Shown here: positions 4,568 through 33,915 of the stretch, piece by piece
Layout of the letters: every line of letters starts with the position of its first letter
Numbering within the stretch: position 1 is the stretch's first letter
Assembly: GCA_036011265.1 (NCBI GenBank)
Contig: DASCNB010000281.1
Span: 1-43,285 of the forward strand
Length of the DNA: 43,285 nucleotides
Source: Nitrospinota bacterium
GTDB lineage: Bacteria > Nitrospinota > Nitrospinia > CAJXCL01
Direction: 5' to 3'
The notes under the pieces: generated by a model
Told to the model about the DNA's origin: nothing
What the model saw: only the letters and a program-made list of their open reading frames with translations
The model's database searches: none
Position numbers and translations under genes: made by a program

Positions 4568-4702
4568 TTAAAGCTATATATTAAATTTGTCACTAAGACA
4601 TCAAAACACTAAAAAACGGGAAACGTAAAAGTGGAAGGAAGGAAAAAAATATTTTTTCTCTTACTATTTTTCCTCAATTTTCAATGTCAACCCATGAATC
4701 AA

Positions 4703-4731
4703 TTGAATTTTAACTCTTTTTTAGTTAAACT
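4703..4731 (+). promoter_or_regulatory. Putative sigma70 promoter for pseI (TTGAAT-N17-TAAACT)
   Basis: Near-consensus hexamers with 17-bp spacing about 50 nt upstream of the pseI ATG; a near-identical copy lies at 30670-30705 on the minus strand. Confidence 0.6.
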
Positions 4732-4781
4732 TTATCACAGGATAAGGTTTTTATCTATTATCATTATTTTAAATAGAAACT

Positions 4782-5834
4782 ATGAATGAGATAACGATTG
4801 GAGATAAAAAGATAGGACTTAACCACCCGCCTTTTATTATTGCGGAGATGTCGGGGAACCATAACCAGTCTTTAGAAAATGCCCTTAAGATTGTTGATAC
4901 GGCGTCTAAAGCAGGAGTTAGCGCTTTAAAACTTCAAACTTACACTGCGGATACGATCACAATCGATGTAAAAAATAATAACTTTTTGATCAGTGATCCA
5001 GATAGTCTCTGGCATGGTAAGACCTTATACGAGTTGTACCGACAAGCCTGTACCCCCTGGGAATGGCATAAGCCTATTTTTGAAAGGTGCAGGAAGTTAG
5101 GATTACTGGTTTTTAGTACTCCTTTCGATGAAACAGCAGTAGACTTTTTGGAAGATTTAAATGTTCCCGCATATAAAATTGCATCATTCGAAAACATTCA
5201 TATACCCTTAATCAGAAAGGTCGCTTCAACAGGAAAACCTTTAATCATTTCTACCGGCATGGCAAGTATCGCAGAGTTGGATGAAGCTGTAAGAACAGCC
5301 CGCCAAGCCGGTTGCAGAAATTTAGTTCTACTAAAGTGCACAAGCGCTTATCCTGCGACACCAGAAAATGCTAATTTATTGACAATCCCACATTTAAGGC
5401 AACTTTTTAAGACTGAGGTCGGCTTATCCGATCATACTATGGGAATAGGAGTTAGCATTGCCAGTGTAGCCTTGGGAGCAACAGTAATAGAAAAACATTT
5501 TACCTTGTCCCGATCTGATGGAGGAGTGGATTCGGCTTTTTCAATGGAGCCGGATGAAATGAAAATGTTAGTTGAAGAAACATTTAAGTCATGGCAAGCA
5601 TTAGGAAAAGTCCATTATGGGGTTACTGAGAAAGAGAGGGATTCTATCCGGTTCAGGCGTTCAATATATGGTGTAGAAAATATCAGAAAAGAGGAAAAAT
5701 TCACCTGTAAAAACCTTAGAGTAATTCGTCCCGGAAATGGTTTACCTCCAAAATACTATGATATCCTTTTAAAAATGAAAGCCTCCCGTGATATTAAGCG
5801 AGGGACTCCTATACACTGGGAATATGTGGAGTAG
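4782..5834 (+). CDS. pseI: Pseudaminic acid synthase (NeuB family, C-terminal SAF domain)
   Basis: PFIIAEMSGNHNQS, KLQTYTADTIT, TPWEWH, YKIASFE, LLKCTSAYP, GLSDHT, IEKHFTL, GGVDSAFS, IRPGNGL; these are PseI-type rather than NeuB-type signatures. Confidence 0.93.
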   Translation: MNEITIGDKKIGLNHPPFIIAEMSGNHNQSLENALKIVDTASKAGVSALKLQTYTADTITIDVKNNNFLISDPDSLWHGKTLYELYRQACTPWEWHKPIFERCRKLGLLVFSTPFDETAVDFLEDLNVPAYKIASFENIHIPLIRKVASTGKPLIISTGMASIAELDEAVRTARQAGCRNLVLLKCTSAYPATPENANLLTIPHLRQLFKTEVGLSDHTMGIGVSIASVALGATVIEKHFTLSRSDGGVDSAFSMEPDEMKMLVEETFKSWQALGKVHYGVTEKERDSIRFRRSIYGVENIRKEEKFTCKNLRVIRPGNGLPPKYYDILLKMKASRDIKRGTPIHWEYVE

Positions 5835-8637: not shown

Positions 8638-10338
8638 GTGAGAATATTATTAGTCGTCCCTAATTACCAGGAAAAGTTTTATCAAATTCCTCGTGGCTTA
8701 ATGTGTATTTCCGCGTATTTAAAAGATAAGGGATATGATGTTACCTGCCTTAATCTGAACCATTACGATTCTGGCAAATTAACCAATGTTCTTCGAAAAA
8801 ACAGTTTTGAAATCGTAGCAACAGGTGAGGTGTTTACCAGATTCAAACCCATAAAGGAAATAATTGAAACAACCAGAATATGTAATCCCGATGCCAAAAT
8901 TGTTATAGGAGGTGGTATAGCTACCGGCGACCCTGAATTCATCCTAAATGAATTACGGCCCGACTATCTTGTTTTAGGCGAGGGTGAAGTGGCTATGGAT
9001 AATTTGGCCCAAGCCATCAAGAACCGCTCAGATATCCATGATGTTACGGGAGTCGCTTTTAAAGAAAATGGTACGTTTATCAAGACCAAACCCACTCCTC
9101 TCATCGAAGATTTAGACCAACTCCCTTACCCTGATTATGAAGGTTTTGAATATGCTTTTTATATGCAAAACTTTATATCTAAAAGCCAACACTTGCAGAC
9201 TATTATGGATATATCCAAAAGAAGGCTGGGTATTGTCAATGCGAGCCGAGATTGCGTTAAGAAGTGTACCTTTTGCTTTAGAATTATGGGAGGCAATTTT
9301 AGAACGCGATCCATAAAAAATTTTTTTGGAGAAATCAGTTATTTGATTGATAAATATGGCATTACTGATCTTTTGTTACAGGACGACATATTAGCATCCA
9401 ATAAAAAGCGGATTTTTGAATTTTGTGAAGCCATTAAACCTTTAAATCTCTTCTGGTCTTGCAATTTACGGGTTTCAAATGCAGATGATGATATTTATGA
9501 GGCCATGAAAGACGCCGGCTGCTATAATATTTTGTATGGATTTGAAAGCGCCAGTCCTGCTGTTCTAAAAAGCATGAAAAAGGGGATTACGCCAAAACTC
9601 ATGGAGAAAGCGATTCAGGCTTCACTTAAAGCAAAATTGCGAATCGATTCAACTTTTATTTTTGGAGATCCTGTAGAAACTTTGCAGACAATCAATGAAA
9701 CATTCAAATTTATTTACAACTATAAATCTATCCGAATGGGGATGAAGCTGATCTCTCCTTTTGCCGGGACGGTTTATTATGAAATTTATAAAAAAAGATA
9801 TGGGATAGAACATTTGCCTAACTTTTACAAAAATCACCTTATGCCTATCAACATTACGTCTCTTTCCAAAAAGGAATTCTCGTATATGGTGAGGAAAGTC
9901 GATTTTGAAAACAGCTATCATTTACTATACTCTATGGGGAAAATTCTGAATTCTAAAAAAATAGCCAAACGGATTTTTAATTTAGATATTCTCTGTCCCA
10001 ATTGCAAACTGGAAAATGATAATTGCAGAATAGATTTTAATGAAGGTTTTCGGCTGGTTTGTAAACATTGTTTGCAAACAATTTATATTAATCAAGCCAA
10101 TTTCAGATTTGGCAACATCTCTCAGATTTATCAATTTTTATTTCTTTACGTGAAGAAAATAGTCCTGTATAACGTTTATACTTATCGGCTTCTCTTTTTC
10201 ATCCTTCCTTTGATAGAAAATACAGCGGCAGTTTGCAGGGCTGTGGTAAATTTTATTCAGAAAAGGAATATCGGCCTCAATAGACCGGCTGATGACACAT
10301 GTAAAAAGAGCCGGATGTCAGGGTCATATGTCGGATGA
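8638..10338 (+). CDS. Cobalamin-binding radical SAM enzyme (class B methyltransferase-like) with C-terminal Zn-ribbon-like motif
   Basis: N-terminal B12 domain (PRGLMCISAYLK, IVIGG, GEGE, DLDQLPYPD), CVKKCTFC, GFESAS, C-terminal CPNC...CKHC; GTG start. Confidence 0.88.
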   Translation: MRILLVVPNYQEKFYQIPRGLMCISAYLKDKGYDVTCLNLNHYDSGKLTNVLRKNSFEIVATGEVFTRFKPIKEIIETTRICNPDAKIVIGGGIATGDPEFILNELRPDYLVLGEGEVAMDNLAQAIKNRSDIHDVTGVAFKENGTFIKTKPTPLIEDLDQLPYPDYEGFEYAFYMQNFISKSQHLQTIMDISKRRLGIVNASRDCVKKCTFCFRIMGGNFRTRSIKNFFGEISYLIDKYGITDLLLQDDILASNKKRIFEFCEAIKPLNLFWSCNLRVSNADDDIYEAMKDAGCYNILYGFESASPAVLKSMKKGITPKLMEKAIQASLKAKLRIDSTFIFGDPVETLQTINETFKFIYNYKSIRMGMKLISPFAGTVYYEIYKKRYGIEHLPNFYKNHLMPINITSLSKKEFSYMVRKVDFENSYHLLYSMGKILNSKKIAKRIFNLDILCPNCKLENDNCRIDFNEGFRLVCKHCLQTIYINQANFRFGNISQIYQFLFLYVKKIVLYNVYTYRLLFFILPLIENTAAVCRAVVNFIQKRNIGLNRPADDTCKKSRMSGSYVG

Positions 10339-15329: not shown

Positions 15330-16253
15330 ATGGATTTTAAAAAAGTTTTTATTTCCACCAGTTCATTTGCTCAATACGATTCCCAACCAATAGAATTACT
15401 TAAGGAAGCTAATTTTATTGTTAAGTTAAATCCTTACGGAAGAACTTTAGTTGAACCCGAAATCCAGGATGCAGTCAAAGATTGTAATTTGCTCATTGCC
15501 GGGACAGAACCTTTATCACGATCTGTTTTGGAATCAGCAAAAAAGTTAAAAATAATATCAAGGTGCGGAGCAGGGCTGGATAATGTAGATTTAATAGCTG
15601 CACAAGAGATTGGAATTAAAGTATTTAACACGCCTTTTGGGCCTACACAGGCTGTTGCTGAGCTAACAACAGGAGTAATCCTGGACTTGCTTAGAAAAAT
15701 AACATTCATGGATAGAGAACTGAGGGCAGGGAAGTGGCAGAAGAAAATGGGTAATCTCCTACAAAACAAACGTGTCGGTTTCATTGGCTTTGGAAATATC
15801 GGGCAAACTGTGGCTGAACTCCTGCTACCGTTTAATGTGGAAATTTCTTATTATGACATTCGCACTCTACCCTCCTGCGAAAAATACAGGCGCCTCGAAT
15901 TAGAACCGTTACTTTCCTGCTCAGACATCATTACCATTCACATATCGGTGTCTCCGAATACTAAAACAATAATAGGAGCTAAAGAATTAAAATTGATGAA
16001 GCAGGGAAGCTGGCTTGTTAATATGTCCCGAGGAGGTCTGATCGATGAAAATGCTCTTTATAAAGCGCTGGAGAGTGAACATTTGTCTGGCGCTGCTTTA
16101 GATGTTTTTGAGCGAGAACCTTATATTGGTGAATTGACCAAGCTAAACAACGTAGTTTTAACCCCTCATGTTGGATCTTACGCCAAAGAAGCCCGGATCC
16201 AGATGGAAATAGATGCTGTAAAAAACCTCCTAAAAACCATTAAGAGAGCGTAA
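15330..16253 (+). CDS. D-isomer-specific 2-hydroxyacid dehydrogenase (PGDH-like, no ACT domain)
   Basis: GAGLDNVD, AVAEL, GFGNIG, NMSRG, ALDVFEREP, LTPHVG. Confidence 0.9.
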   Translation: MDFKKVFISTSSFAQYDSQPIELLKEANFIVKLNPYGRTLVEPEIQDAVKDCNLLIAGTEPLSRSVLESAKKLKIISRCGAGLDNVDLIAAQEIGIKVFNTPFGPTQAVAELTTGVILDLLRKITFMDRELRAGKWQKKMGNLLQNKRVGFIGFGNIGQTVAELLLPFNVEISYYDIRTLPSCEKYRRLELEPLLSCSDIITIHISVSPNTKTIIGAKELKLMKQGSWLVNMSRGGLIDENALYKALESEHLSGAALDVFEREPYIGELTKLNNVVLTPHVGSYAKEARIQMEIDAVKNLLKTIKRA

Positions 16254-16871
16254 ATAATCGAAAGGATTGTTGAAGAAAATTACATTTTGGGGAAAAGGGG
16301 ATTTTCCTCCTTCGGGAACCCGCCCAATAAACTTAGCTCCTGCCTCCATTGCCCCTTCATAGTCAGCTATTGAATCCCCAACCACCATGGCTTCTTCGGA
16401 AGAGTAACCGTTTTTTTCAAGAATAAACAAAATACTTTCACCTTTTTTCCTGTTTGCTCCATAGACTGAACGAAAATAATGAGCCATATTTCTTTTTTGG
16501 ATAATTCTTTTAAGCTCCTCATCAGGAGTTGCAGAAACCACATATATATTAATTCGCCTGAAATAATCATCTAAAAATTCTTTGGCACCCGTGACCCATG
16601 GCGCTTTAACTACCATTTCTTCAACCAGATTAGAAAATCTATCACCTGATTCTCTTTCAACATCTTCCGTGTATTCAAGTCCCAGTAAAACCTCTTGAAA
16701 AAACTTAAATTTTTCATAGCGCGATATACCTCCATTCTTAAGATGGTAATCTACAACCTGTTTTACAATTTTTGGTCCATGATTTTTATAAAGTTCTGCA
16801 AAAGCTTTAGTTTTTATATCAACTGACTCCGCAAGAACTCCATCAAAATCAAAGATTATCGATTTCATCAT
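16230..16871 (-). CDS. HAD-superfamily phosphatase
   Basis: FDFDGVL (motif I), VVSAT (II), K (III), VGDSIAD (IV); overlaps the dehydrogenase 3' end convergently by 24 bp. Confidence 0.9.
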   Translation of the reverse strand: MMKSIIFDFDGVLAESVDIKTKAFAELYKNHGPKIVKQVVDYHLKNGGISRYEKFKFFQEVLLGLEYTEDVERESGDRFSNLVEEMVVKAPWVTGAKEFLDDYFRRINIYVVSATPDEELKRIIQKRNMAHYFRSVYGANRKKGESILFILEKNGYSSEEAMVVGDSIADYEGAMEAGAKFIGRVPEGGKSPFPQNVIFFNNPFDYLRSLNGF

Positions 16872-17320
16872 TTAATTGTCTTTTACCAAAAAAATATTTA
16901 TAATTGTGATTTAAATATGCGCCTAAAAAAACCTCCGTGATAGTCAATAACCTCGAATTATTTATACACGTATAAAAACAAAAATACAATAACTGATGAA
17001 AAAATTAAGTTAAAGCTGTCCAATACATTTTCTTGTAATAAATTTTCCTGAGATTCAAGAATTTCAAGAAATTTGCGGTTATTTTCTGCTTAAAGAGGGT
17101 TATGGATTAGAATCTAAATGGTAAAAAAATAGTGTCTAATTCAAGATTTAAATAACTTATCAAAAGGTGTTCATGGATTATTGTTTCAGTATATTAATCA
17201 ACAAACGCAGAGAAACGCGCCATCACTTTTTCAAATGAACTCAGAGCTGCATTATTTTCAAAAAGAAAATTAAGGATTTAAAGCTTCAACAGTAAATAGA
17301 ACCTATACGTAAGGTAGTCA

Positions 17321-19501
17321 ATGAAAAAAGACATTTTATGCACAATTGGACCCGCATCTCTTAAAAAAACCGTTCTACAACGAATGAATGATCTTCCTGT
17401 AACATTACTCAGAATCAATCTCTCTCATACATCGCTTCAGCAGATGATTAAAAATATCCATTTTATCCAAAGTGTAAGCCATATACCTATATGTATTGAT
17501 ACTGAAGGTTCTCAAATCAGAACAGGAAGAATGGCGGGCAATGAGGTGTTTCTTAATGAGGGAAGCTTTGTTACGATCCATCAAAAACAAGTCACGGGAA
17601 ACGCGCAAAACATTACTTTCTATCCAACAGAAGCGATTGATCGAATTCATTTACTGGATTGTATTTCTATAGATTTCGATAGTGTGCTTGTGCAGGTTGT
17701 AGAAAAAAAAAATCATTATCTGAAGACAAAAGTAATTACCGAAGGTTTGATTGGAAGTAATAAAGCCGTTACAGTTAACCGTCCTATATTGTTAGACTCT
17801 CTCACCAAAAAGGATCGGAAAGCAATTAAAATTGCTCTTGATCTGGGAATTAAGCATTTTGCTCTTTCTTTTGCAAATCATGTAGAGGATGTTCTAGAAT
17901 TGCGCTCATTGACTGGCAAAGAATGTTTTTTAATTTCAAAAATTGAGACCCACGCGGGGGTCAGCCATATAGAATCCATATCAAAAGAATCCGATGCGAT
18001 ACTTATTGACAGGGGAGACCTCTCTCGAGAAGAACCTATTGAAGACATCCCCCTCCTTCAAAAATTTATTATCCATAAGACTAAAAAAACAAACGCCAAG
18101 ATATATGTGGCCACCAATCTTCTTGAAACCATGGTCACTCAAAAAAAACCAACTAGAGCGGAAGTAAGCGACGTCTTAAATACATTAATAGACGGCGCGG
18201 ACGGACTTGTACTCGCCGCTGAAACAGCCATTGGGGAAAATCCGGTTGGATGTGTAAATATGATTTCAAAATTAATGAACCAATATTATAACTACTGCAA
18301 ATTTGACATGCAAATCGACAAATATGAAAAGAGGTCGCTCTTAATAGAACCACATGCGGGTCACCTTGTTAACCAATTCCTAGACAACCCGGACATACCT
18401 GAAATAAAAAAACTTCCCTGCCTGGAAGTAAGTGAAGAGATCGTAATGGAGTGTGAGCAAATTGCCTCAGGTGTTTATTCTCCTTTAAAAGGATTTATGA
18501 ACAAAGAAGAAATAGAAAGTGTCCTTAATCATTATTGTTTACCCGATAACACTGTATGGCCTTTACCTATTTTCTTTCAAGTAAGAAAAGAATGTACTGG
18601 TAAGCTTAGAAAAGGCGATTTGGTTGCCCTAAAAAATACTACTTCAAAGGAACTCTTTGCAATAATGACTATTGAAAGCATTTTTTCCTTAGAATTAAAT
18701 TCATTTGCGAAACGGTTGTTTGGCTCTGATTCAGAAAAACATCCTGGTGTTTCCCGGTTAAAAGGGGCCGGAGGTATGTTTCTTGCCGGCAAAATTGAAT
18801 TATTTAAATATTCAAATAAATCAGCTCGAACAGCTCCTTATATATTGAGTCCGGCTGATACACGTATGATTATGGAGCAAAAAAACTGGTATAGGACCGT
18901 TGGGTTTCATACAAAAACTGTTATCCATAGAGGGGATGAATTTATCCAATTAAAAACTCTCAATGATTATTATTGTGATGGTTTGCTTGTTTTACCGTGC
19001 CTAGGATCACAGAAGAAAAATGATTTTCATAACGAAATCGTATTCGACTCTTACCAAACTATGATAGATTTCAATTTATATCCTAAAAACAAAGTTTTGA
19101 TAGGAGCATCCTTATCGTATTCACGATATGCGGGACCAAGAGAAAATGTGTTTATCGCAATATGCCAAAAAAATTACGGCTGCTCCCATTTATTAATGGG
19201 CCGAGACCATTTAAACGATCTCGATTACTACTCATATGAAGAGACCGTTAATCTCTTTGAGAAATTAGGAGATATTGGAATTAGCCCCATTTTATTTAAA
19301 GATGTATTTTATTGTGAACAGTGCAAAGGTCCTATCCTTTCCTGTGAACATCAAAAATCGGGCAACTATCTTTTGAACGGATCTATTCTACGTAAAAACA
19401 TTACAGAAGAAAAAAAATCTCCCCACTGGTTATTAAGAGAGGAAATATCAGAAATGTTGGTTGAAGCGGCTAAAAGGAGAAAACAAATTTTTATTAGATG
19501 A
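17321..19501 (+). CDS. Pyruvate kinase (A/B domains) fused to an ATP sulfurylase (Sat)-like domain
   Basis: Residues ~1-325: CTIGPAS, RINLSH, DTEGSQIRTG, SKIE, RGDL, PTRAEVSDV, DGAD..L..ETAIG. Residues ~341-726: PHAGHLV, YSPLKGFM, WPLPI, HPGV, YAGPRE, NYGCSH...GRDH, CxxC..C.H. One uninterrupted ORF. Confidence 0.9.
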   Translation: MKKDILCTIGPASLKKTVLQRMNDLPVTLLRINLSHTSLQQMIKNIHFIQSVSHIPICIDTEGSQIRTGRMAGNEVFLNEGSFVTIHQKQVTGNAQNITFYPTEAIDRIHLLDCISIDFDSVLVQVVEKKNHYLKTKVITEGLIGSNKAVTVNRPILLDSLTKKDRKAIKIALDLGIKHFALSFANHVEDVLELRSLTGKECFLISKIETHAGVSHIESISKESDAILIDRGDLSREEPIEDIPLLQKFIIHKTKKTNAKIYVATNLLETMVTQKKPTRAEVSDVLNTLIDGADGLVLAAETAIGENPVGCVNMISKLMNQYYNYCKFDMQIDKYEKRSLLIEPHAGHLVNQFLDNPDIPEIKKLPCLEVSEEIVMECEQIASGVYSPLKGFMNKEEIESVLNHYCLPDNTVWPLPIFFQVRKECTGKLRKGDLVALKNTTSKELFAIMTIESIFSLELNSFAKRLFGSDSEKHPGVSRLKGAGGMFLAGKIELFKYSNKSARTAPYILSPADTRMIMEQKNWYRTVGFHTKTVIHRGDEFIQLKTLNDYYCDGLLVLPCLGSQKKNDFHNEIVFDSYQTMIDFNLYPKNKVLIGASLSYSRYAGPRENVFIAICQKNYGCSHLLMGRDHLNDLDYYSYEETVNLFEKLGDIGISPILFKDVFYCEQCKGPILSCEHQKSGNYLLNGSILRKNITEEKKSPHWLLREEISEMLVEAAKRRKQIFIR

Positions 19502-19508
19502 TTTTATA

Positions 19509-20489
19509 ATGCAAAAACCTTTTGAACCTATCTTAAAAAAACATTCTATATTTATTACGGCTATAGGGCGGTCGGCGCTTGGTTCTTTTTCAAGGATACT
19601 GCCTCAAATGATCAAAGATTGCCATGGAGTACACGAACCGGATGTTTTGTGGTTTTATCGTATAACAGGTTTGGTTAAAGATGACCCGCTACTTCTTCGA
19701 AAAATAAGAGATTTTGGTTTTTTCAATATGACTATTGGAAAGTTGCTACCCCTACGTAATTTAAGGGGCCTTTCACTGGCGCTTCAAATGGGAAAAATAG
19801 ATACAACCACCGCTGCCTATCACTTATATAAAATTCGCTGGCACTATGTCTTAAGGTTAAAGGAATCGATCTATGCCGAATGTAACTCACAATTAGCAGG
19901 GTTGTTGGATATAATCCCCTTGGTTTTTCCAAACTCAAAAACAGTATGCATCATACGCGATGGAAGAAGTTGGGTACGTTCATTTCTTAATAGAGTCCCT
20001 ACATTAATGGGGAAAAAGGACTTAATGACTTATGTCCCATACAGCCGCCCCAGAGCAGACCTTTTCCCGGAGGACCCTTTTTTTCGGCAATGGAAGAATT
20101 TTTCCCAATTTCAGCGCGTATGCTGGTTATGGCGCTATAGAGCAAGCTCTGTTTTAAAATCAAGTAGCCTGAACTCTAATGTAAAATTCATCAAATATGA
20201 AGACTTGCTCGAAGGAACACAACAATATGAGACGATGGAGGAAATGTTAAAATATCTATCTTCCTTCCCGGATGGCTTCCAAGCAGATTATAAATTCTGT
20301 AAAGAAAATATTTTTGGCAAAAAGATCGGCCAATCTCAATTTAGTATAATCCCCCATTGGAAGGAATGGACCCCTGAAAGAGTTAAACAATTTCAGGATA
20401 TCTGTGGAGAGATGCAAAATCGATTGGACTATGGTCGCGAACATCAGTGGCTTGAAATGAAAGCAAACTGCAAGCCAACTGAGAACTAA
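19509..20489 (+). CDS. Sulfotransferase family protein (paralog 1)
   Basis: IFITAIGRSA (5'-PSB-like loop), HEP, IIRDGRSWVRS (3'-PB motif), IKYEDL, W..W; ATG at 19509 preferred over the overlapping TTG at 19461. Confidence 0.8.
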   Translation: MQKPFEPILKKHSIFITAIGRSALGSFSRILPQMIKDCHGVHEPDVLWFYRITGLVKDDPLLLRKIRDFGFFNMTIGKLLPLRNLRGLSLALQMGKIDTTTAAYHLYKIRWHYVLRLKESIYAECNSQLAGLLDIIPLVFPNSKTVCIIRDGRSWVRSFLNRVPTLMGKKDLMTYVPYSRPRADLFPEDPFFRQWKNFSQFQRVCWLWRYRASSVLKSSSLNSNVKFIKYEDLLEGTQQYETMEEMLKYLSSFPDGFQADYKFCKENIFGKKIGQSQFSIIPHWKEWTPERVKQFQDICGEMQNRLDYGREHQWLEMKANCKPTEN

Positions 20490-20540
20490 GCCCAACAGGG
20501 CTGTATATCTGCTGAAAAAATAAAAAATTTTCGGAAGTAT

Positions 20541-21524
20541 ATGTTTCTAAAAAAAAAAGAAAATAAAGCGCAAAATATTCAAAAACCCTGCATTTTTGTT
20601 GTATCAGGTGGTCGAACAGCAACTCGCTTTCTTTCAGAACTCTTAGCATTATCCATTAAAGACTGCTATGCCGTGCAAGAACCGGATATTTGGCGCATAG
20701 ATTCTTTAATAGATTTCAGAGAAAATAAAAAAATATGGCACAAGAAAATAAGAGATTTTGGTTTTTACAATATGGTAATAGGCAAGTTAACTCATAGAGG
20801 CAGCCCAAGAGCTTTGTCTCTAGCCAGACAAAGAAACATGGTTAATGAAAGAGAATCAAAAAATAAATTATATCAACTTCGCTATCGTTTTATATCGAAA
20901 CAAAAAGAACTGATTTACGCGGAATGTAATTTGCAGTTTTCCGGTTTAATTGACATTATTCCCTTGGTCTTTCCTAATTCCAAAACAGCATTCATAATTC
21001 GTGATGGCCGGGATTGGGTCTCTTCATGGTTTAATGGCTATTTTACTCCTTTTGGGAAAAGAGATCCTTTGTATTACTTAGCCGCGAGTAGACCTAATTC
21101 AGACATGTTTCCTGGAGATCCTTTTTTTGGTCATTGGAAACATTTATCGCAATTTCAGCAAATATGTTGGGTATGGCGCTTCCATATAGAATACGCTTTA
21201 AAGACTATAAAAAAGAATCCTCATTCTATAGTTGTAAAATATGAGGATTTATTTTCCGGTGATAAAAAATACGATTCGATGAACGACTTATTAAAACACC
21301 TGACCTGCTTCCCAAATAAATTCCAAGCGGAATACAAATATCCAGAGGAACTCTCAGGAAAGAGATTTCACGAATCGAGAACCAATAACTTTCCTAAATG
21401 GGAAAATTGGTCCCCTCCCCGGGTCCAAGAATTTCAACAAATTTGTGGTGATTTTTTGATTGAACAAGGATACGGCATGGAACCGAGATGGCAAGAAATG
21501 ACAAAGAAAGCCGGGGCAGTTTAA
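20541..21524 (+). CDS. Sulfotransferase family protein (paralog 2)
   Basis: IFVVSGGRTAT, QEP, IIRDGRDWVSS, VKYEDL; colinear with paralog 1. Confidence 0.82.
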   Translation: MFLKKKENKAQNIQKPCIFVVSGGRTATRFLSELLALSIKDCYAVQEPDIWRIDSLIDFRENKKIWHKKIRDFGFYNMVIGKLTHRGSPRALSLARQRNMVNERESKNKLYQLRYRFISKQKELIYAECNLQFSGLIDIIPLVFPNSKTAFIIRDGRDWVSSWFNGYFTPFGKRDPLYYLAASRPNSDMFPGDPFFGHWKHLSQFQQICWVWRFHIEYALKTIKKNPHSIVVKYEDLFSGDKKYDSMNDLLKHLTCFPNKFQAEYKYPEELSGKRFHESRTNNFPKWENWSPPRVQEFQQICGDFLIEQGYGMEPRWQEMTKKAGAV

Positions 21525-21555
21525 TTCATATATTCTTTGGTTTAAAGACTAATAT

Positions 21556-22791
21556 CTACCCCATGGCATACACACAGCTTATAAATTTTTTGTTTAAAGT
21601 ATCCCAATGAAAATCTTTACTCCTCTCCAAACTCTTTGATGCAATATTTTTTGAATACTCTTCATCATAAAGTATCTTTTTTAAAGCTCTTATTAAATCT
21701 TCCACATCTCCTGATTTAACAAGAAGGCCATATTTTCCATTTTCTAAAATATGCTTTCTGTCTGTCAAATCTCCTGTAATAATAGGCACTCCCGATGCCA
21801 TACCTTCAAAAACTTTTAATGGACTTCTTCCTTCGCAAGCCGGTTTACTTTTAACAGGATCAACAATGACGCTGCATAGTTTATAGTAATATTTCACCTC
21901 ATCAGGGTCTACGAAGCCAACCCATTTTACGCCTTCTGTCATATCTTTCTTTATTAGAGATTTTAAAAATTCTCTGTCATCGTCACTACCTCTTCCAACT
22001 ATCAGCAATACTATATTTTTATCTGTTTTATAAAGAACGTTAAAGGCTTTTACTAATAGGTCTACAGAATGCCCTGTCAAATCCAAAGCACCAATATATC
22101 CAATTATTTTTTTATTTTCTAAATTTAATTTTGATTTAATTTCATTAATAATATTGTCATCTAATCTTCCGAACCTTTCGAGATCAACGCCATTTGGGAT
22201 ATATATGATTTTCTCCTTATCTATTCCAAGATTAACTAACCTTTGTTTCATGAATAGGGTATTTACAGTTATCAAGTCACAATACTTTGGCACATTATCT
22301 TCAAATAATTGAAAAACTTTTTTTTGTAATTTATTGCTTAACTTATTTGCGTATAGTTCATAATCATCACAATCCAATATTATTTTTTTTTGTTTAATCA
22401 GTTTTATTAATAAAGCAGCCGTTGAATTTATTGGTTGCGGCTTGCATAAAACAATAATATCTGCTTTAAGAAAAAAGCCTTTCAGAAGCATCTTAATGGT
22501 TGAAGAAAGAACAACGTAGAACAGCGAGCAAGGCCCCATATATACTTTTTTATCACCTTCTTTTTTTACATGCATTTGGCCGACATAATGCACAGAAACC
22601 CCTTTTATTACGTCATATACTTTTAGTTTCTTGCATAGTGATCTATAATTATGATGTAAAGTGAGCAAATCTACTCTGACTTTACTTTTCCCTAATCCCT
22701 TTGCTAAAGGCAGGTATCTCCCAATAAAACTGGCTCCTTCCGCTCCTTGAGTCGCAAAAAAAGTAACATGTTTCTTGAAGTATGATTCCAT
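21556..22791 (-). CDS. Glycosyltransferase family 4
   Basis: IPNGVD, GYIG, LLIVGRG, EGRSPLKVFEGMASGVPII. Confidence 0.9.
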   Translation of the reverse strand: MESYFKKHVTFFATQGAEGASFIGRYLPLAKGLGKSKVRVDLLTLHHNYRSLCKKLKVYDVIKGVSVHYVGQMHVKKEGDKKVYMGPCSLFYVVLSSTIKMLLKGFFLKADIIVLCKPQPINSTAALLIKLIKQKKIILDCDDYELYANKLSNKLQKKVFQLFEDNVPKYCDLITVNTLFMKQRLVNLGIDKEKIIYIPNGVDLERFGRLDDNIINEIKSKLNLENKKIIGYIGALDLTGHSVDLLVKAFNVLYKTDKNIVLLIVGRGSDDDREFLKSLIKKDMTEGVKWVGFVDPDEVKYYYKLCSVIVDPVKSKPACEGRSPLKVFEGMASGVPIITGDLTDRKHILENGKYGLLVKSGDVEDLIRALKKILYDEEYSKNIASKSLERSKDFHWDTLNKKFISCVYAMG

Positions 22792-22814: not shown

Positions 22815-23957
22815 TTAAGAAATTATTTTTTGTATGCTTTCCGGAGTGGAAGCTCCATTTGGAAGCGGCCCTCCGGCCGCTTTTTGTTTTTTGAATTTCA
22901 GAGCATCGATTATTAATCTAGGATAAAAGCTGGGATTAAACATGAGATTTGTTGTATAAAAACATTCATGAGTACAAAAACATTTTCTGTCCCTTATAAA
23001 GTTTCTTATTTCATTTGCTTTGTGAGAGTTCCATACTTTCTTAAAGCTATAATCATGGTCTCTCAGGTTGCCTATCCTCTTATCTAATAGCTCACAGCAA
23101 AACACATCCCCCCCATCATACAAGACTCCCGTTAGAGCCCCAGCATAGCAGGGCGTAATATATCTACTTTCTCTAAAAGTATTTACAATTATGTCATTTC
23201 TAAGCAGATTCTTTGCGGCTGCTAATCTTGCAGCCGGTGAATGATCATTAAATTTTCTATCAAATTTCATTCTCTGCGTAATTTCTACATATTTTGAAAT
23301 GTTAATATCTTTTAAATCCATATCTTGCGGGTTTCCCCTTATTAAATTGATATTAAAAACCGCCTCCGGCATTTTTCCCTTTATGAAAGCATATATATCA
23401 TTTAATTTATTCTGATTTGTCTTGGTGTGGGTGGTTAGCGCATAAATGCCCAAGTTTTTATTGTGTTTTTTAATTTCTACCAAGCCATTGTAGGTGTCTA
23501 ATAATCTATTAAAATGATCTTTCAGCTTTGTTTCTTTTTCCATATCTTCATACAAATGATTTATAGATAGATTTATACTAATGGAAAGACCAGGACAAGC
23601 CTTTAAAATCTTATTAACATCGTTAATTATTCTTGTCGTTAAAAAACCAGTGCTTATCAGGGCTATCTTCCTGACTCCCGCATTTTTGTGATAGATTATC
23701 GCTATATCAGCTAATTCTTTTCTCAAAAAAGGTTCTCCGCCAGTAAGTATCACTTGATAAAGATCTTTATCAAAGCTCCTTGTAACCTTATCAATTTCTT
23801 CAAGAGTTAATTCATTCTTTGTTTGATTTAATTGTTCCCAATAGAAACAAAAATTGCATTGGGCATTGCATCTTGAAGTAACGAAATGGATTAAGTATAT
23901 AGGGTTATTTCCCTTTTTTTGAACTATTCTGCTAAATAATTTGAAATAATTTACCAT
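22815..23957 (-). CDS. Radical SAM enzyme with SPASM/twitch domain
   Basis: CNAQCNFC, LTGGEPFLR, CYAG...GDVFCCE...IGNL...W...CFCTHEC. Confidence 0.9.
   Translation of the reverse strand: MVNYFKLFSRIVQKKGNNPIYLIHFVTSRCNAQCNFCFYWEQLNQTKNELTLEEIDKVTRSFDKDLYQVILTGGEPFLRKELADIAIIYHKNAGVRKIALISTGFLTTRIINDVNKILKACPGLSISINLSINHLYEDMEKETKLKDHFNRLLDTYNGLVEIKKHNKNLGIYALTTHTKTNQNKLNDIYAFIKGKMPEAVFNINLIRGNPQDMDLKDINISKYVEITQRMKFDRKFNDHSPAARLAAAKNLLRNDIIVNTFRESRYITPCYAGALTGVLYDGGDVFCCELLDKRIGNLRDHDYSFKKVWNSHKANEIRNFIRDRKCFCTHECFYTTNLMFNPSFYPRLIIDALKFKKQKAAGGPLPNGASTPESIQKIIS
22834..22871 (+). repeat. 38-bp GC-rich element, copy A (inverted relative to 26973-27010)
   Basis: 31/38 identity to the reverse complement of 26973-27010 by manual alignment; internal hairpin GGAGT-GGAA-GCTCC. 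Confidence 0.7.
22863..22892 (+). terminator. Intrinsic terminator-like hairpin on the plus strand
   Basis: AAGCGGCC-ctcc-GGCCGCTT stem followed by a T-rich tract (TTTTTGTTTTTT from 22881); antisense to the gene it lies in. Confidence 0.55.
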
Positions 23958-27079: not shown

Positions 27080-28114
27080 CTATCGAGTTTCTCTTCGAAT
27101 GGAACCAATAATATTCCTGATACCGATTTTTCTAAGAACACTCAAATCAAATGGATAGTATTTGCCGGCTGGGCCTCCTTTTTTTTCTTTGCAATTTTTA
27201 CAGAGGGGGTTGTCTTCAAAATTATTCATAATATGCTGTCTCCTTAATTCTATCATCCTGTCACAATTCCAAATTTCTTCAAGCGATTGACTATGCACAT
27301 CCCCTATTATATATTTACCATCATAATCATAGCAGCATGGGACTACTTTGCCATTCCACAGGATAGTGAGTAAAAACCATGGTCGCATGCATGGGTATGA
27401 ATTCTCGGATCGGTAAGAGTCTGATAATTGTGATTTTCGGGCCATTTTTGCTATTGTAGCATCAGAGCCATCCCATGTTTTGAACTGCTTTATAATAATT
27501 TTATCAATGCCAGGGATATTCCAACGGTTTTTGAATTCTTTAACCTCTGCTTCCGTATTTTTCATTTCAATCATGGAAATCTCAATAAAGGGGCGCCCAT
27601 TTCCCTTTATTTTTTTTTTCTTTAAAAGATTACTCACATTTTTTTCTGCTAAATTATAATCAACTGAATTTCCACGGAGATACTTATAAGTATTATCATT
27701 AATTCCATCCAGGGAGAGGGTAATTCTGTCAATGTCCCCAGACATAATTCTTGTGACAATTTTGTCTGATAAAGATGTGGGATTTGTGGAAATTCCGGTC
27801 TTTATATCTTTTGATTTCGCATAGTCAACAAATTGATTTAATTGAGGGTGAAATACTGAATCTCCAAAATGAAAGAGCCATATCATTTTAGAATAGCCTG
27901 ATGTTTGGTCAATAATTTTTTGAAAGATATCAATGCTCATATTTCCTATTTTTCTTGTCATATTGCCCCTTGGGCACATTTTACACTCTAAGGGACAATA
28001 ATTTGTAGGCTCAATATTATAAATATCCGGAAAACCTCTACAAACTTCTTCTCTATGGAAATATGAATAGCTTTTTAAGAAATAATTATAAAGTTCTTTA
28101 ATCCTATTTATCAT
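27080..28114 (-). CDS. Radical SAM enzyme with SPASM/twitch domain
   Basis: IEPTNYCPLECKMC, LSLDG, CMRPW...GKVVPCC.D...IG...W...CKNC. Confidence 0.92.
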   Translation of the reverse strand: MINRIKELYNYFLKSYSYFHREEVCRGFPDIYNIEPTNYCPLECKMCPRGNMTRKIGNMSIDIFQKIIDQTSGYSKMIWLFHFGDSVFHPQLNQFVDYAKSKDIKTGISTNPTSLSDKIVTRIMSGDIDRITLSLDGINDNTYKYLRGNSVDYNLAEKNVSNLLKKKKIKGNGRPFIEISMIEMKNTEAEVKEFKNRWNIPGIDKIIIKQFKTWDGSDATIAKMARKSQLSDSYRSENSYPCMRPWFLLTILWNGKVVPCCYDYDGKYIIGDVHSQSLEEIWNCDRMIELRRQHIMNNFEDNPLCKNCKEKKGGPAGKYYPFDLSVLRKIGIRNIIGSIRRETR

Positions 28115-30991: not shown

Positions 30992-32062
30992 GTGGACAAC
31001 TATAGAATTGACGGTCATAAGCTGCTCTATCATATACCTCGTGTCAACGCCTGGCTAAATAAAGAAAATATTTATCCAATTTATATGGAAATTAGTCCAA
31101 CTGGGGCATGTAATCACAGGTGTACTTTTTGCGGACTTGACTTTATGAAATATCAACGCAGGTTCCTTGATACTGGTTTGCTTAAAGAGAGGCTATCGGA
31201 GATGGGTAGGCTTGGCCTAAAAGGTGTGATGTACTCCGGCGAAGGAGAACCTTTTTTACACAAAGAAATATCTGATTTAATCTTGCATACAAAGGAGTCT
31301 TCTATCGATGTAGCATTAACAACAAATGGTGTTTTGCTTAATGAATCGACTGCGGAAAAAATTCTTGGACATGTAGAATGGATTAAAGTAAGTATTAGCG
31401 CTGCAACGAAAGAGACTTATGCAAAGATTCACAAAACTGAGTCCGATGATTTTGACAAGGTGGTAAAAAACCTGTCGAACGCAGCGAATATAATAAAAGT
31501 GAAAGGTTATAAATGTGCTCTCGGTATGCAGATTTTACTTTTACCAGAGAATAGCCATGAGATCCTTCAGTTGGCAGAAATAGCGCGAGAGATAGGTATG
31601 AATTACCTGGTTGTAAAGCCTTATTCACAGCATCTGTTGAGTAAAACAAATCGGTATAAACAAATCAAATACAACGATTATTTATATATTGCAGATGAAT
31701 TGAAAAAGTTTAAAACCAATCATTTTTCAGTTATATTCAGGATAAATACCATGAAAAAATGGGATGAGAGCAAACGGAATTATGAACGCTGTTTTGCTTT
31801 ACCTTTCTGGTCATATATTGACTCCGGCGGCAATGTCTGGGGTTGCAGTGCATATCTCGGAGACAAAAAGTTTCTTTATGGGAATATTTATGAAAATTCT
31901 TTCAAGGAAATATGGGAGAGTGAAAAAAGGAAAAAGTCACTTCACTGGGTTGAAGAAGAGCTTGATGTTAGTAATTGCAGAATCAATTGCAGAATGGACG
32001 AAATTAATCGATACCTCTGGAAACTTACTTATGAGCCTCCTGAGCATGTAAATTTTATTTAA
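30992..32062 (+). CDS. Radical SAM enzyme with SPASM/twitch domain (paralog of 36063-37166)
   Basis: CNHRCTFC, SGEGEP, TTNG, CFALP...GNVWGC...GNI...W...CRINC; GTG start. Confidence 0.92.
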   Translation: MDNYRIDGHKLLYHIPRVNAWLNKENIYPIYMEISPTGACNHRCTFCGLDFMKYQRRFLDTGLLKERLSEMGRLGLKGVMYSGEGEPFLHKEISDLILHTKESSIDVALTTNGVLLNESTAEKILGHVEWIKVSISAATKETYAKIHKTESDDFDKVVKNLSNAANIIKVKGYKCALGMQILLLPENSHEILQLAEIAREIGMNYLVVKPYSQHLLSKTNRYKQIKYNDYLYIADELKKFKTNHFSVIFRINTMKKWDESKRNYERCFALPFWSYIDSGGNVWGCSAYLGDKKFLYGNIYENSFKEIWESEKRKKSLHWVEEELDVSNCRINCRMDEINRYLWKLTYEPPEHVNFI

Positions 32063-33009: not shown

Positions 33010-33057
33010 TAATTGCTGATAATATTAATATTGTTAAATTAAAGAAACTTGGCGGCA

Positions 33058-33915
33058 ATGAAACCACTAATAATTCCAAAAAGCTATAACTATATTGCAG
33101 TTTTTTTAAGTCTTTCCTGTAACCTTAAATGCAGTTACTGCATTAACCATTATGGAGAATCAAAGCTTCCCAAAGGACATTTGTCGGGAAAGGATTGGGT
33201 AAGGGGGTTGAATAGAATTGAGTCAAGGGACGATTTGCCTATTACCCTTCAAGGCGGCGAACCGAGTTTGCATAAAGACTTTATGTATATTTTAAATTGT
33301 ATAAAAAGAAATTTAAACATAGATATTCTGACAAACCTACAATTTAATGAAAATAGTTTTATCCGGGATATTCATCCAGATAGAATTAAACGGAATGCGC
33401 CTTATGCTTCTATTCGTGTTAGTTATCACCCTGAAGTAATGGAGCTTGATCCATTATTAAAAAAGACGTTAAAACTGCATCGCAATGCTTATAGTATCGG
33501 CATTTGGGGATTGGACCATCCGAATAATAAGAAGCTAAATGAAGAAGCAAAGAGAAAGTGCTCTGAATTAGGAATTGATTTTCGCCTTAAAGAGTTTTTA
33601 GGTGAATTTAATGGTCGCCTATACGGAACATATTTCTATAAAGGATCAGTAGAAAATAGATCGAAACAAAATGTCTTATGTAAAACAAGTGAATTAATAA
33701 TAGGCCCGAATGGAATGATATACCGCTGCCACAGCGATTTGTATGAAGACAGAGAGTCAGTTGGAAATATTTTAGATCCTGAATTTGAAATCAAAGATAT
33801 TTATCGGAAGTGTAATTATTTTGGCCATTGCAATCCTTGCGATGTGAAGTTGAAGACAAATAGATTTCAAAAGTTTGGGCATACATCGGTTAAGATTGAA
33901 AACGTTAGCAAATAA
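33058..33915 (+). CDS. Radical SAM enzyme with short C-terminal Cys-rich (twitch-like) domain
   Basis: CNLKCSYC, LQGGEP, TN, SYHP, C...GMIYRC...GNI...C..C..CD; ATG at 33058 (ORF opens with TTG at 33049). Confidence 0.88.
   Translation: MKPLIIPKSYNYIAVFLSLSCNLKCSYCINHYGESKLPKGHLSGKDWVRGLNRIESRDDLPITLQGGEPSLHKDFMYILNCIKRNLNIDILTNLQFNENSFIRDIHPDRIKRNAPYASIRVSYHPEVMELDPLLKKTLKLHRNAYSIGIWGLDHPNNKKLNEEAKRKCSELGIDFRLKEFLGEFNGRLYGTYFYKGSVENRSKQNVLCKTSELIIGPNGMIYRCHSDLYEDRESVGNILDPEFEIKDIYRKCNYFGHCNPCDVKLKTNRFQKFGHTSVKIENVSK

Follow-up and report, generated by a model that had tools for sequence, protein, structure and literature searches.

Closest described systems

Bifunctional PAPS synthases, such as those of Aquifex (2gks) and human (PAPSS1) as well as the 570-aa Sat-CysC protein of the genome studied here, link ATP sulfurylase (Sat) with a second PAPS-pathway enzyme that assists it. 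The same principle is found in the pyruvate kinase (PK)-Sat fusion described below, relatives of which adjoin or are fused with APS kinase (CysC). In contrast to PAPS synthases, the partner is an N-terminal PK half instead of an APS kinase, and the copy in the window, i.e., the whole analyzed stretch of 43,285 nucleotides, lacks the catalytic residues of Sat.

CysDN/NodPQ is a GTP-coupled system of sulfate activation, which rhizobia use for the sulfation of glycans and Nod factors. Like the mechanism proposed for PK-Sat, it couples sulfate activation to additional phosphoanhydride energy, but it has an unrelated sulfurylase fold, hydrolyzes GTP and involves neither PK nor PEP.

The ATP sulfurylase of Penicillium chrysogenum (1i2d), which is among the PDB matches of the window's protein, carries a C-terminal APS-kinase-like domain that has no kinase activity and acts as an allosteric PAPS site. 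This enzyme is a precedent within the pathway for a dead domain that a fusion protein retains for regulation or structure. However, in P. chrysogenum the kinase domain is dead and Sat is active, whereas in the window's copy Sat looks dead and PK looks intact. In addition, there are short PKs without the C-terminal domain (NCBIfam NF005234/PRK06739). The window's PK half matches positions 2-324 of the 352 positions of this profile with 185 bits, far under the cut-off of 564 bits, and, unlike these enzymes, it is fused to Sat. A stand-alone, barrel-only PK of 317 aa adjoins sat in a relative from the same class (G019).

Furthermore, fusions of ATP sulfurylase (ATPS) with inorganic pyrophosphatase and with APR occur in stramenopiles, haptophytes and a dinoflagellate. 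They resemble PK-Sat in combining Sat with an enzyme that takes away a product or draws the unfavourable reaction forward (PMC2275785); the survey describing them contains the term "pyruvate kinase" 0 times (PMC2275785). Both these fusions and PK-Sat mirror what chemists add in vitro, but PK would remove the ADP of APS kinase and regenerate ATP instead of removing the PPi formed by Sat, as the pyrophosphatase does.

In-vitro PAPS cascades use the enzyme set of PK-Sat plus cysC, namely Sat, APS kinase and PK, and PK and PEP are needed there against the build-up of ADP and a dead-end enzyme-ADP-APS complex (PMC9885120). The cascade is an engineered mix of separate commercial enzymes (PMC9885120), whereas PK-Sat is a natural gene fusion with predicted activities.

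Domain architecture and sequence verification

The fusion ORF, its domains and the neighboring features are listed in Table 1. The 726-aa ORF with a PK barrel agrees with the original prediction, and so does the absence of the C-terminal allosteric domain of PK, for which Pfam finds no match in this ORF. In an alignment to the solved PKs 7oo1 and 2e28, the PK half keeps catalytic-type residues. The Sat-like half, regarded as complete beforehand, is indeed full-length and its catalytic domain still reaches 170 bits in Pfam, but it is not intact, as active-site residues kept by all 196 other family members are gone. AF2 predicts no fixed orientation or interface of PK and Sat (mean pLDDT 87.2, pTM 0.65, flexible linker).

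Table 1. Features of the PK-Sat locus, with positions in the window.
Feature	Position	Strand	Basis and remarks
Relic of a sulfotransferase of the ORF 1/ORF 2 family, 25 C-terminal codons	17047..17121	+	blastx; some 200 nt before the fusion ORF
PK(A+B)-PUA-ATP-sulfurylase fusion ORF, 726 aa	17321..19501	+	ORF list; Pfam and NCBIfam matches
PK barrel and lid domain, residues 2-311	17324..18253	+	PF00224, E 3e-60, profile positions 3-327/328
Inter-domain linker, residues 329-339	18305..18337	+	pLDDT < 50 in the AF2 model
PUA-like N-terminal domain of ATP sulfurylase, residues 342-496	18344..18808	+	PF14306 (PUA_2), E 4.7e-37
ATP-sulfurylase catalytic domain, residues 507-715, degenerate	18839..19465	+	PF01747, E 6.4e-50
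Altered RNP/HxxH motif	18908..18940	+	H-T-K-T-V-I-H-R-G-D-E; family H-T-R-N-x-x-H-x-x-H-E; solved Sats Q-T-R-N-x-x-H-x-x-H-E
Altered GRD loop	19199..19216	+	G-R-D-H-L-N; family G-R-D-H-(T/S/A)-G
Sulfotransferase-like ORF 1	19509..20489	+	ATG at 19509, 8 nt past the stop of the fusion; longest frame from TTG at 19461
Sulfotransferase-like ORF 2	20541..21524	+	Sulfotransfer_3, E 3.6e-4, 21.3 bits, under the 27-bit cut-off

A misassembly at about 18300-18340, considered a possible source of the fusion, was not found: this junction is spanned by metagenome contigs from three of the four runs compared with 0 differing letters, and it is common to 196 homologs. Since 0 letters differ between the window and the contigs of 4 runs, taken from 4 studies, its sequence is not regarded as an error.

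Genomic context

ORF 1, which has no Pfam match of its own, and ORF 2 are paralogs with 45% identity over 312 aa. The AF2 model of ORF 2 has a pLDDT of 86.4, and its listed Foldseek matches in the PDB, ranks 1-48, are all sulfotransferases; the best 10 hits of a PDB profile search are also all sulfotransferases, with weak E-values of at least 0.04. Both ORFs are therefore predicted to have a sulfotransferase fold, in agreement with the two sulfotransferases assigned to this position originally, but the sequence evidence, including that from Pfam, is weak.

The relic upstream of the fusion shows 60% identity to residues 293-317 of ORF 2 (42 bits, blastx), a score reached by none of 300 shuffles (maximum 28.5). 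In the closest relative (L013), the gene order is sulfotransferase, hexapeptide transferase, cysC and PK-Sat. The upstream cysC of the relatives is absent from the window's locus, where only the sulfotransferase relic is left upstream.

The surroundings form a glycan locus, as had been stated, with NeuB, cytidylyltransferases, glycosyltransferases and a flippase. Likewise, the window is free of APS kinase, since all three PF01583 matches of the genome are located on other contigs (C43, C264 and C11). A search for separate pyk, sat and cysC genes revealed a housekeeping PK on C48 and, on C43, the canonical Sat-CysC (QTRN, HRAH, GRDHAG) adjoining CysQ.

The PK-Sat family in other genomes

The combination of PK and ATP sulfurylase recurs in at least 120 full-length proteins, which have the same three Pfam domains, with identities of 43-65%. 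The nearest homolog in a search of 5.8 billion proteins is 65% identical and has the canonical Sat residues. Eighty genome loci were gathered from Nitrospinota, Omnitrophota, Planctomycetota, Chloroflexota, Actinomycetota and Proteobacteria, with cultured Sinorhizobium, Ensifer, Mesorhizobium and Methyloversatilis among the hosts.

The neighborhoods in other genomes are usually glycan loci. In a six-frame HMM scan, cysC was found in 44 of the 80 loci and a sulfotransferase in 49, the latter called by iterated home-made HMMs with Pfam verification of cluster representatives only. At least one of the two was present in 69 loci, both in 24 and neither in 11, and 25 had a sulfotransferase with cysC undetected. 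When the count is confined to the 55 loci with 5 kb or more on each side, 50 contain cysC or a sulfotransferase; as a rough background rate, 3 cysC and 7 sulfotransferase-like matches were counted in 3.01 Mb of the window's own genome. In addition, P0079 (879 aa) is a triple fusion with an APS kinase domain added to PK-Sat, and G019 represents a split form with adjacent, separate cysC, sat and PK genes. Because of the cysC and sulfotransferase neighbors and these fused and split forms, the family is best read, judging from gene content, as a dedicated PAPS-supply module for the sulfation of cell-surface glycans. The link to sulfation drawn in the original prediction is thus borne out, and no description of the fusion was found in the literature searched, as anticipated there. 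PK-Sat is a widespread, uncharacterised family.

The whole family departs from canonical Sat by a His for Gln in the QxRN motif, and its PK half has DTEG(A/S)Q compared to DTKGPE in 2e28; canonical chemistry is therefore an assumption for the family.

Degeneration of the sulfurylase half

The window's copy carries the substitutions R532K, N533T, H539D, G632N and F518M at positions without any variation among the other 196 members (100% conservation), as well as A609N, T612I and R616Q at positions with at least 98% conservation. It is the only one of 197 members without R532, N533, H539 and G632, and the solved Sats 8a8d and 1v47 have the canonical residues at the substituted positions. It deviates at 9/50 family-conserved positions in Sat versus 2/82 in PK (Fisher p 0.0027), and its nine Sat deviations are the most of all members, followed by three in the next most deviant one. 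Its terminal branch is 0.615 in the Sat tree compared to a median of 0.14 (4.4x) and 0.24 in the PK tree compared to 0.174 (1.4x).

GRDH, the first His of HxxH (H536), H530 and E540 are still present, and a CxxC...CxH pattern is kept, judged by eye from a comparison with the published zinc motif. The altered RNP/HxxH motif is identical in contigs from two of four runs, the other two having no coverage there, and the GRD loop, whose residues 630-632 have a pLDDT < 50, in those from all four. In the ATPS of A. vinosum, APS is bound through its sulfate and alpha-phosphate by the counterparts of the Arg, the Asn and the residues of the GRD loop; the His of the HxxH motif responds to phosphate (PMC3779200). 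R-to-K and N-to-T are conservative changes, which makes residual or altered activity of the window's copy conceivable.

In the tree, the copy nests among Nitrospinota sequences with canonical residues. A homolog from the same genus (G006) has decayed in another way and further: its GRDH motif is lost and a frameshift splits the gene. Given the substitutions in the window's copy, its Sat-like half has most likely lost ATP sulfurylase activity in this organism. Since the site is degenerate, cysC is lost and a canonical Sat-CysC with CysQ is encoded elsewhere, the window's copy probably does not itself activate sulfate.

Proposed function and alternative explanations

With a probability of roughly 0.55, the family is a PAPS-supply module with PK recycling ADP, and the window's copy is a derived member with an inactive Sat half and a conserved PK. 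In the family, Sat would make APS, and CysC would form PAPS with release of ADP, which the tethered PK would turn back into ATP using PEP. This recycling would keep ATP high and avert the dead-end CysC-ADP-APS complex. In the cascade study, ADP accumulates and almost no PAPS is formed by PAPSS1 without PK/PEP (PMC9885120). In the window's copy, the sulfurylase half has lost residues for the binding of sulfate, the alpha-phosphate and pyrophosphate, and the cysC that ancestrally lay upstream is deleted. The Sat-like half may persist as a scaffold or as a ligand-binding attachment to a PK that is still active, and the canonical Sat-CysC would then supply the two downstream sulfotransferases with PAPS. 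Several observations stand against this explanation: PK-driven recycling of ATP needs no fusion in principle because a housekeeping PK exists, AF2 predicts no fixed PK/Sat interface, the whole family departs from canonical motifs, part of the conserved Sat residues are kept in the window's copy, 11 of the 80 loci have neither cysC nor a sulfotransferase, and the two sulfotransferase genes directly follow the window's copy as if the unit were functional.

The PEP-powered sulfate-activation device proposed originally is supported by the conserved fusion and its link to sulfation, but the lost catalytic residues and the lost cysC of the window's copy speak against it, and PK-Sat as an alternative to APS kinase is not supported. 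Given these residues and the canonical Sat-CysC, CysQ and housekeeping PK, the protein is unlikely to be such a device in this genome. An active Sat half that still makes APS for the two downstream sulfotransferases would suit the intact ORF directly followed by these genes, the retained GRDH, H530, H536 and E540, the identical sequence in metagenome contigs of several studies and the sulfation context of the family. However, R532, N533, H539 and G632, kept by 196/196 other members and the solved Sats, are gone, and these residues contact the sulfate, the alpha-phosphate and the PPi site (PMC3779200); the long Sat branch, the missing cysC and the alternative Sat-CysC also argue against activity, which appears improbable.

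It is likewise improbable that the gene as a whole is in decay and has kept no function. The lost cysC neighbor, the upstream sulfotransferase relic, the degenerate Sat site and the frameshifted homolog of G006 point in this direction, but the frame is open over 726 codons, PK deviates at only two conserved positions with a branch of 1.4x the median compared to 4.4x for Sat, and no variant letters occur in the contigs of the 4 runs.

A new catalytic specificity of the Sat-like half for another anion or nucleotide, rather than a simple loss of function, is also improbable. The changes cluster in active-site loops, the fold, the CxxC...CxH pattern and 41/50 conserved positions are kept, and the PK half is under constraint. 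However, eight substitutions unique to this copy and scattered across three motifs suggest relaxed constraint rather than a tuned switch, the state is found in 0/196 other members, the nearest homolog with 65% identity is canonical, and the G006 copy decays differently and more severely.

PK phosphorylates nucleoside diphosphates at their terminal phosphate and not at a 3'-hydroxyl. That the PK-like half replaces APS kinase by phosphorylating APS or another sulfonucleotide from PEP is highly improbable. Phosphorylation of a sulfonucleotide was speculated on originally, and the window without APS kinase and the 25/80 sulfotransferase loci without detected cysC might suggest such a replacement, but cysC occurs in 44/80 loci and forms part of the P0079 fusion, 3 APS kinase matches exist in the window's genome, and an APS kinase is present in 5/5 tested genomes whose locus seemed to be without cysC, in one of them directly downstream after all.

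Architecture of the Fusion Protein

The original prediction had described a single ORF with pyruvate kinase (PK) and ATP sulfurylase (Sat) parts, followed by sulfotransferase genes in a glycan locus, without an APS kinase gene (cysC) in the window, and this description was found to be correct. The Pfam search assigns residues 342–715 to the PUA_2 and ATP-sulfurylase domains, and no match to the C-terminal alpha/beta domain of PK, which is allosteric and tetramer-forming, was found in the fusion ORF. The NCBIfam PK profiles match only up to approximately position 347 of 476. The matches to PK and sulfate adenylyltransferase models of NCBIfam are strong, with every score under the curated cut-off (TIGR01064, the PK equivalog, 260.2 vs. 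306.4 bits; NF003166, 322 vs. 387 bits; TIGR00339, 240.2 vs. 322.95). An APS kinase domain (PF01583) is absent from the ORF. Fusion ORF and locus thereby differ from a bifunctional PAPS synthase (Sat-CysC), which includes this domain.

Features of the fusion ORF and its surroundings (positions in the window unless given as residues of the fusion protein)
Feature	Position	Strand	Description
Radical-SAM-type genes (eight)	8638–10338, 22815–23957, 27080–28114, 30992–32062, 33049–33915, 36063–37166, 39225–40787, 42663–43283		
Relic of a sulfotransferase C-terminus	17047–17121	+	25 codons, in the spacer of 449 nt that precedes the fusion ORF
Fusion ORF	17321–19501	+	726 codons
PK barrel (A-domain TIM barrel and inserted B lid)	residues 2–311		PF00224, profile positions 3–327 of 328, 204 bits, E 3e-60
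PUA-like domain	residues 342–496		PF14306, E 5e-37
ATP-sulfurylase catalytic domain	residues 507–715		PF01747, E 6e-50
Sulfotransferase-like ORF 1	19509 (or TTG 19461)–20489	+	paralogous to ORF 2
Sulfotransferase-like ORF 2	20541–21524	+	fold match, sub-cut-off match to Sulfotransfer_3
E1 dehydrogenase alpha/beta pair	33962–36008		

In the PK half, residues R31, N33, S35, H36, D60, R67, K207, E209, D233, T265, and E301 are invariant in an alignment of 32 sequences including that of the window, and they line up with the solved PKs 7oo1 and 2e28. The motifs RxNxSH, D-T...R, K-I-E, R-G-D, A-T, and E-T-A are what we take to be the phosphoryl-transfer and metal-binding residues of PK, and the kept residues align with the Lys, Glu, Asp, Arg, and Thr that carry out catalysis in solved PKs. 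The PK half of the family departs from these in carrying DTEG(A/S)Q instead of DTKGPE (2e28) and IDRGDLS instead of VARGDLG (solved PKs). An AF2 model is confident for both halves (mean pLDDT 87.2), with values below 50 for the linker 329–339 and the altered GRD loop 630–632. Due to this linker and a pTM of 0.65, no rigid PK/Sat interface or channel is predicted.

The stretch is found near-verbatim in 20 public runs of marine or seawater metagenomes from 12 studies, with no RNA run among those listed. For four of the runs, each from a different study (X11, X14, X17, and X20) and none flagged as a possible source, contigs were compared with the window and showed 0 differing letters. A misassembly at 18300–18340 was not borne out, as the junction is bridged by contigs from three of these runs (X11, 17000–18902; X17, 18270–18578; X20, 17894–18557). 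The unusual codons of residues 530–540 are covered by X14 and X20, those of residues 627–632 by all four runs.

Distribution of the PK-PUA-Sat Family

In a search of 5.8 billion proteins at least 120 matches were obtained, and every one listed shares this set of three Pfam domains. Apart from the product of the window itself, the 119 listed are 43–65% identical over 98–100% of the query and mostly 716–752 aa long. The window's protein fits this family by its three domains, a length in the range of approximately 720–735 aa and full-length alignment, and it nests in a Nitrospinota clade. One member, P0079 (879 aa), carries an extra APS kinase domain.

An alignment-based pattern scan, performed with each species represented by a single genome, gave 531 matching stretches. 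A tblastn relative of any kind, possibly including partial matches, is encoded by 502 of them. These relatives were recovered by the alignment-based scan, whereas a search of genome contigs with the single protein as query returned no relative. The best 80 of those loci, all aligning over approximately residues 1–725, were examined. They come from Nitrospinota, Omnitrophota, Planctomycetota, Elusimicrobiota, Chloroflexota, Actinomycetota, Gemmatimonadota, Bdellovibrionota, and many Proteobacteria, with Sinorhizobium saheli, S. chiapasense (on a plasmid), Ensifer sesbaniae, Mesorhizobium species, and Methyloversatilis universalis as cultured hosts.

As to whether the architecture had already been characterized, no description of a PK-Sat fusion was found in a search of the accessible full-text literature, where the matches involved PK solely as a reagent in assays. 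In PLSDB records with a homolog, the annotation read 'none' at both full-length matches, and one region fetched held 0 features. The source names of the family proteins are 'sulfate adenylyltransferase' or 'pyruvate kinase'. The family is a sulfate-activation enzyme fused to a helper enzyme, uncharacterized, yet already present in databases under generic names.

Gene Neighborhoods

ORFs were called in the 80 loci, their neighbors were clustered and the cluster representatives were named by Pfam. The largest cluster is APS kinase and three clusters are sulfotransferases; the remaining ones comprise NeuB, DegT aminotransferase, sugar epimerases, glycosyltransferases, cytidylyltransferases, and Wzy-like proteins. 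Since the greedy ORF calling undercounted cysC (34 of 80 loci), a six-frame scan with the cluster HMMs was used instead. It detected cysC in 44 loci, a sulfotransferase in 49 and both in 24. Among the 55 loci with at least 5 kb on both flanks, the corresponding numbers are 33, 36, and 19, with either gene in 50. As a rough background, the same HMMs find 3 cysC and 7 sulfotransferase-like frames in the entire 3.01-Mb genome of the window. A family whose homologs have no link to sulfotransferase or glycan genes is not what was found; the association is a strong one, with cysC and/or a sulfotransferase in 69 of the 80 loci.

All five tested genomes with a seemingly cysC-free locus contain an APS kinase, in one case directly downstream. 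Together with the frequency of cysC in the loci, this identifies APS kinase as the usual partner of the fusion, which does not replace it, and the proposal that the fusion serves as an alternative to APS kinase was given up.

In a class-level relative (L094, G019:C3, 5155–7704) the module is split into three separate, tightly packed genes, which encode a 175-aa CysC, a canonical Sat of 356 aa, and a PK of 317 aa that consists of the barrel only. These genes adjoin radical-SAM and large membrane-protein genes, and a 258-aa ORF with approximately three near-identical repeats of about 60 residues (4330–5106) lies just upstream.

A membrane protein of the Na_H_Exchanger family is encoded near PK-Sat in 11 loci (L037, L055, L060, L062, L071, L073, L075, L080, L081, L086, and L087). 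In ten of them the gene shares the strand of PK-Sat and lies at most 700 nt downstream of it, whereas in L075 it is encoded on the other strand, about 2.2 kb off. Among the rhizobial loci, its place is after cysC. The protein possibly transports ions or sulfate in connection with the PK-Sat module.

In four alphaproteobacterial loci (L026, L036, L042, and L043) no cysC or sulfotransferase was detected within 10 kb of PK-Sat. They encode a NeuB homolog, 50–53% identical to that of the window, a few kb downstream. A sulfatase-family frame is located nearby in at least L042, and its cluster covers 5 loci.

Active-Site Residues of the ATP Sulfurylase Half

The best solved relative of the Sat half is 8a8d (E 2e-68). 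In the alignment of the window's protein with 196 family members, it deviates at 14 of the 153 positions conserved to at least 95%. These deviations fall on 2 of 82 positions in the PK part, 3 of 21 in the PUA part, and 9 of 50 in the Sat catalytic part (Sat vs. PK, Fisher p 0.0027). This makes the window's Sat part the most deviant among the 197, followed by a runner-up with 3, at a median of 0. For F518M, R532K, N533T, H539D, and G632N, all 196 other members agree on another residue; for A609N, T612I, and R616Q, at least 193 of the 196 do so. The window's residues at these eight positions are carried by 0 other members.

Three loops are affected. The QxRN (RNP) loop reads H-T-K-T in the window, H-T-R-N in 196 of 196 other members and Q-T-R-N in 8a8d and 1v47; His in place of Gln is a trait of the whole family (197 of 197). 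The HxxH motif, present as H-x-x-H in 8a8d and 1v47, reads H-R-G-D, whereas the second His is kept in all 196 other members. The GRD loop reads G-R-D-H-L-N, compared to G-R-D-H-(T/S/A)-G in the others, with Gly in 196 of 196, and G-R-D-H-A-G in 8a8d and 1v47. According to a structural study on the Allochromatium ATP sulfurylase, which also cites mutagenesis work on the HxxH motif, these loops are strictly conserved, the sulfate of APS is bound by the Arg and its alpha-phosphate by the Asn, the residue following GRDH offers its backbone NH to the sulfate, and the second His of HxxH shifts upon phosphate binding (PMC3779200).

In the domain trees, the terminal branch of the window's copy is 0.615 for Sat (median 0.14) and 0.24 for PK (median 0.174), and its Sat/PK branch ratio ranks 2nd of 197. 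Since the copy nests among Nitrospinota sequences which all have the canonical residues, the Sat change arose on its own lineage. Judged by these substitutions, the Sat half of the window's copy most likely no longer activates sulfate, and the conserved PK half is most likely what selection retains.

Locus History

The closest relative of the fusion protein (L013, 65% identity) is encoded in a locus with the order B12-radical-SAM, sulfotransferase, hexapeptide transferase, cysC, and PK-Sat. In all six Nitrospinota loci (L008–L013), cysC is located just upstream of PK-Sat. In the window, the spacer at this place contains a relic that corresponds to the very C-terminal end of this sulfotransferase family, with 60% identity to residues 293–317 of ORF 2 (42 bits); 0 of 300 shuffles reach this score, with a maximum of 28.5. 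No cysC remnant is detectable. The relic points to the deletion of an ancestral sulfotransferase-cysC pair.

A genome of the same genus (G006) encodes a distant PK-Sat homolog on contig C51 (L090, 1471–2709 and 2675–3670; 41% and 34% identity), which a frameshift within the PUA domain divides in two. This copy retains intact PK motifs, but its Sat GRDH motif is gone and its RNP loop reads N-T-K-S. A single Sat loss shared by both copies is not supported, as they are not sisters in either domain tree. The split homolog is followed by an ORF without a Pfam match, which is cut by the locus end.

In the region 16200–22000, neither promoter-like sites (18 vs. 19.1 expected) nor terminator-like sites (6 vs. 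4.0 expected) exceed the shuffles, and Rfam gave no match across the whole window.

The Two Downstream Sulfotransferase-Like ORFs

ORF 1 and ORF 2, which are 45% identical to each other, follow the fusion ORF, and a convergent glycosyltransferase gene comes next. Sequence profiles barely detect them. The Sulfotransfer_3 profile (PF13469) scores 21.3 bits for ORF 2 (cut-off 27) and has no match in ORF 1, and non-iterated HMMs of Pfam-verified sulfotransferase clusters reach a best E of 0.008. Both are members of a family with just 25 proteins, and PF13469 is matched by 6 of these. When the PDB was searched with a profile of this family, the top 10 matches were all sulfotransferases, though weak ones (E 0.04 for the segment that binds the 3'-phosphate).

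The AF2 model of ORF 2 (pLDDT 86.4, pTM 0.86) was compared with the PDB using Foldseek, and ranks 1–48 among the matches listed are all sulfotransferases (best E 6.8e-5, TM 0.4–0.5). The comparison was run on ORF 2, and ORF 1 is assigned by its 45% paralogy. Across 19 homologs, little or no variation is seen at G24, R25, and T26, which lie close to the first strand, and in the segment I-R-D-G-R-x-W-x-x-S (153–162). The latter segment aligns weakly (E 0.04) with the equivalent segment of TPST2. Both are candidates for the PAPS-binding motifs 5'-PSB and 3'-PB. Due to the thin sequence scores, the assignment relies on fold and transitive homology, and on this basis both ORFs were accepted as putative sulfotransferases.

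Other Sulfate-Activation Genes of the Genome

A check of the window's genome for separate pyk, sat, and cysC genes was positive. It encodes a housekeeping PK of 480 aa, and three APS kinase matches are located on other contigs. One is a 570-aa Sat-CysC protein on contig C43 with canonical QTRN, HRAH, and GRDHAG motifs, whose gene adjoins that of a CysQ-type phosphatase; two further APS kinase genes are present. With these genes, the genome can make PAPS without the fusion protein.

A 192-aa APS kinase (PF01583) is encoded on contig C11 (approximately 36000–49000, L096 and beyond). Its neighbors, by eye, resemble thiamine-diphosphate decarboxylase, iron alcohol dehydrogenase, and nucleotidyltransferase genes, and one ORF resembles the B12-radical-SAM proteins of the window. 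A sulfotransferase-like frame, one of 7 in the genome, lies about 7 kb from this APS kinase (47989–48978). The APS kinase on contig C264 (1771–2496, L095) has an N-terminal DUF2061 predicted membrane domain.

Proposed Role in Sulfate Activation

The activation of sulfate runs energetically uphill, and its products tend to inhibit it. Natural remedies known to us are APS kinase fusion, pyrophosphatase fusion, and GTP coupling, to which a conserved PK fusion, if true, would add a fourth.

In the simplest reading, the family would be a PAPS factory. Sat would make APS, a neighboring or fused CysC would convert it to PAPS and ADP, and the tethered PK would recycle the ADP to ATP using PEP. Given the family-specific changes (DTEG(A/S)Q, IDRGDLS, and the His in QxRN), the canonical PK and Sat chemistry behind this reading is one that we infer. 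PK and PEP play this part in vitro. For human PAPSS1 without PK/PEP, one study reports that ADP accumulates and almost no PAPS is formed, which is ascribed to a dead-end enzyme-ADP-APS complex (PMC9885120). An analogous, natural Sat-pyrophosphatase fusion was described in a survey of eukaryotic sulfate-assimilation genes, in which pyruvate kinase is never mentioned (PMC2275785).

A PEP-powered device, as originally proposed, is a reasonable hypothesis for the family, but not for the window's copy. There, the canonical pathway would supply the PAPS for the two putative sulfotransferases, and the Sat half, though probably dead, may still bind APS or PAPS or dock a kinase.

More broadly, PK-Sat with CysC could be a widespread, natural self-recharging PAPS synthase, in which PEP sustains both sulfate activation and APS phosphorylation via the tethered PK for glycan sulfation, and the role of the window's PK in sulfation could outlive Sat catalysis; this tentative reading is given a probability of roughly 0.3. 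For example, the PK might be an ADP scavenger held at a PAPS synthase or at the sulfotransferases by the dead, ligand-binding Sat domain. PK-Sat apparently serves dedicated glycan sulfation in many phyla, including cultivable rhizobia and Methyloversatilis. It would provide a single-protein part for biocatalytic PAPS production, where PK and PEP are now added by hand. The window's copy, with a decayed sulfurylase site and a kept PK half, is a natural experiment that bears on the contribution of the latter.

The Surrounding Glycan Locus

The locus in the window encodes NeuB, three CMP-sugar-type cytidylyltransferases, epimerases, a carbamoyltransferase, a flippase, GT1/GT2/GT9 glycosyltransferases, a PMT-like membrane protein, and eight radical-SAM-type proteins, an unusual density for 43 kb. 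Two of the eight have a B12-binding domain, five a SPASM domain and one Radical_SAM alone; one of the five SPASM genes is truncated where the window ends, which leaves SPASM as its sole visible domain. An E1 dehydrogenase alpha/beta pair is also encoded in the window.
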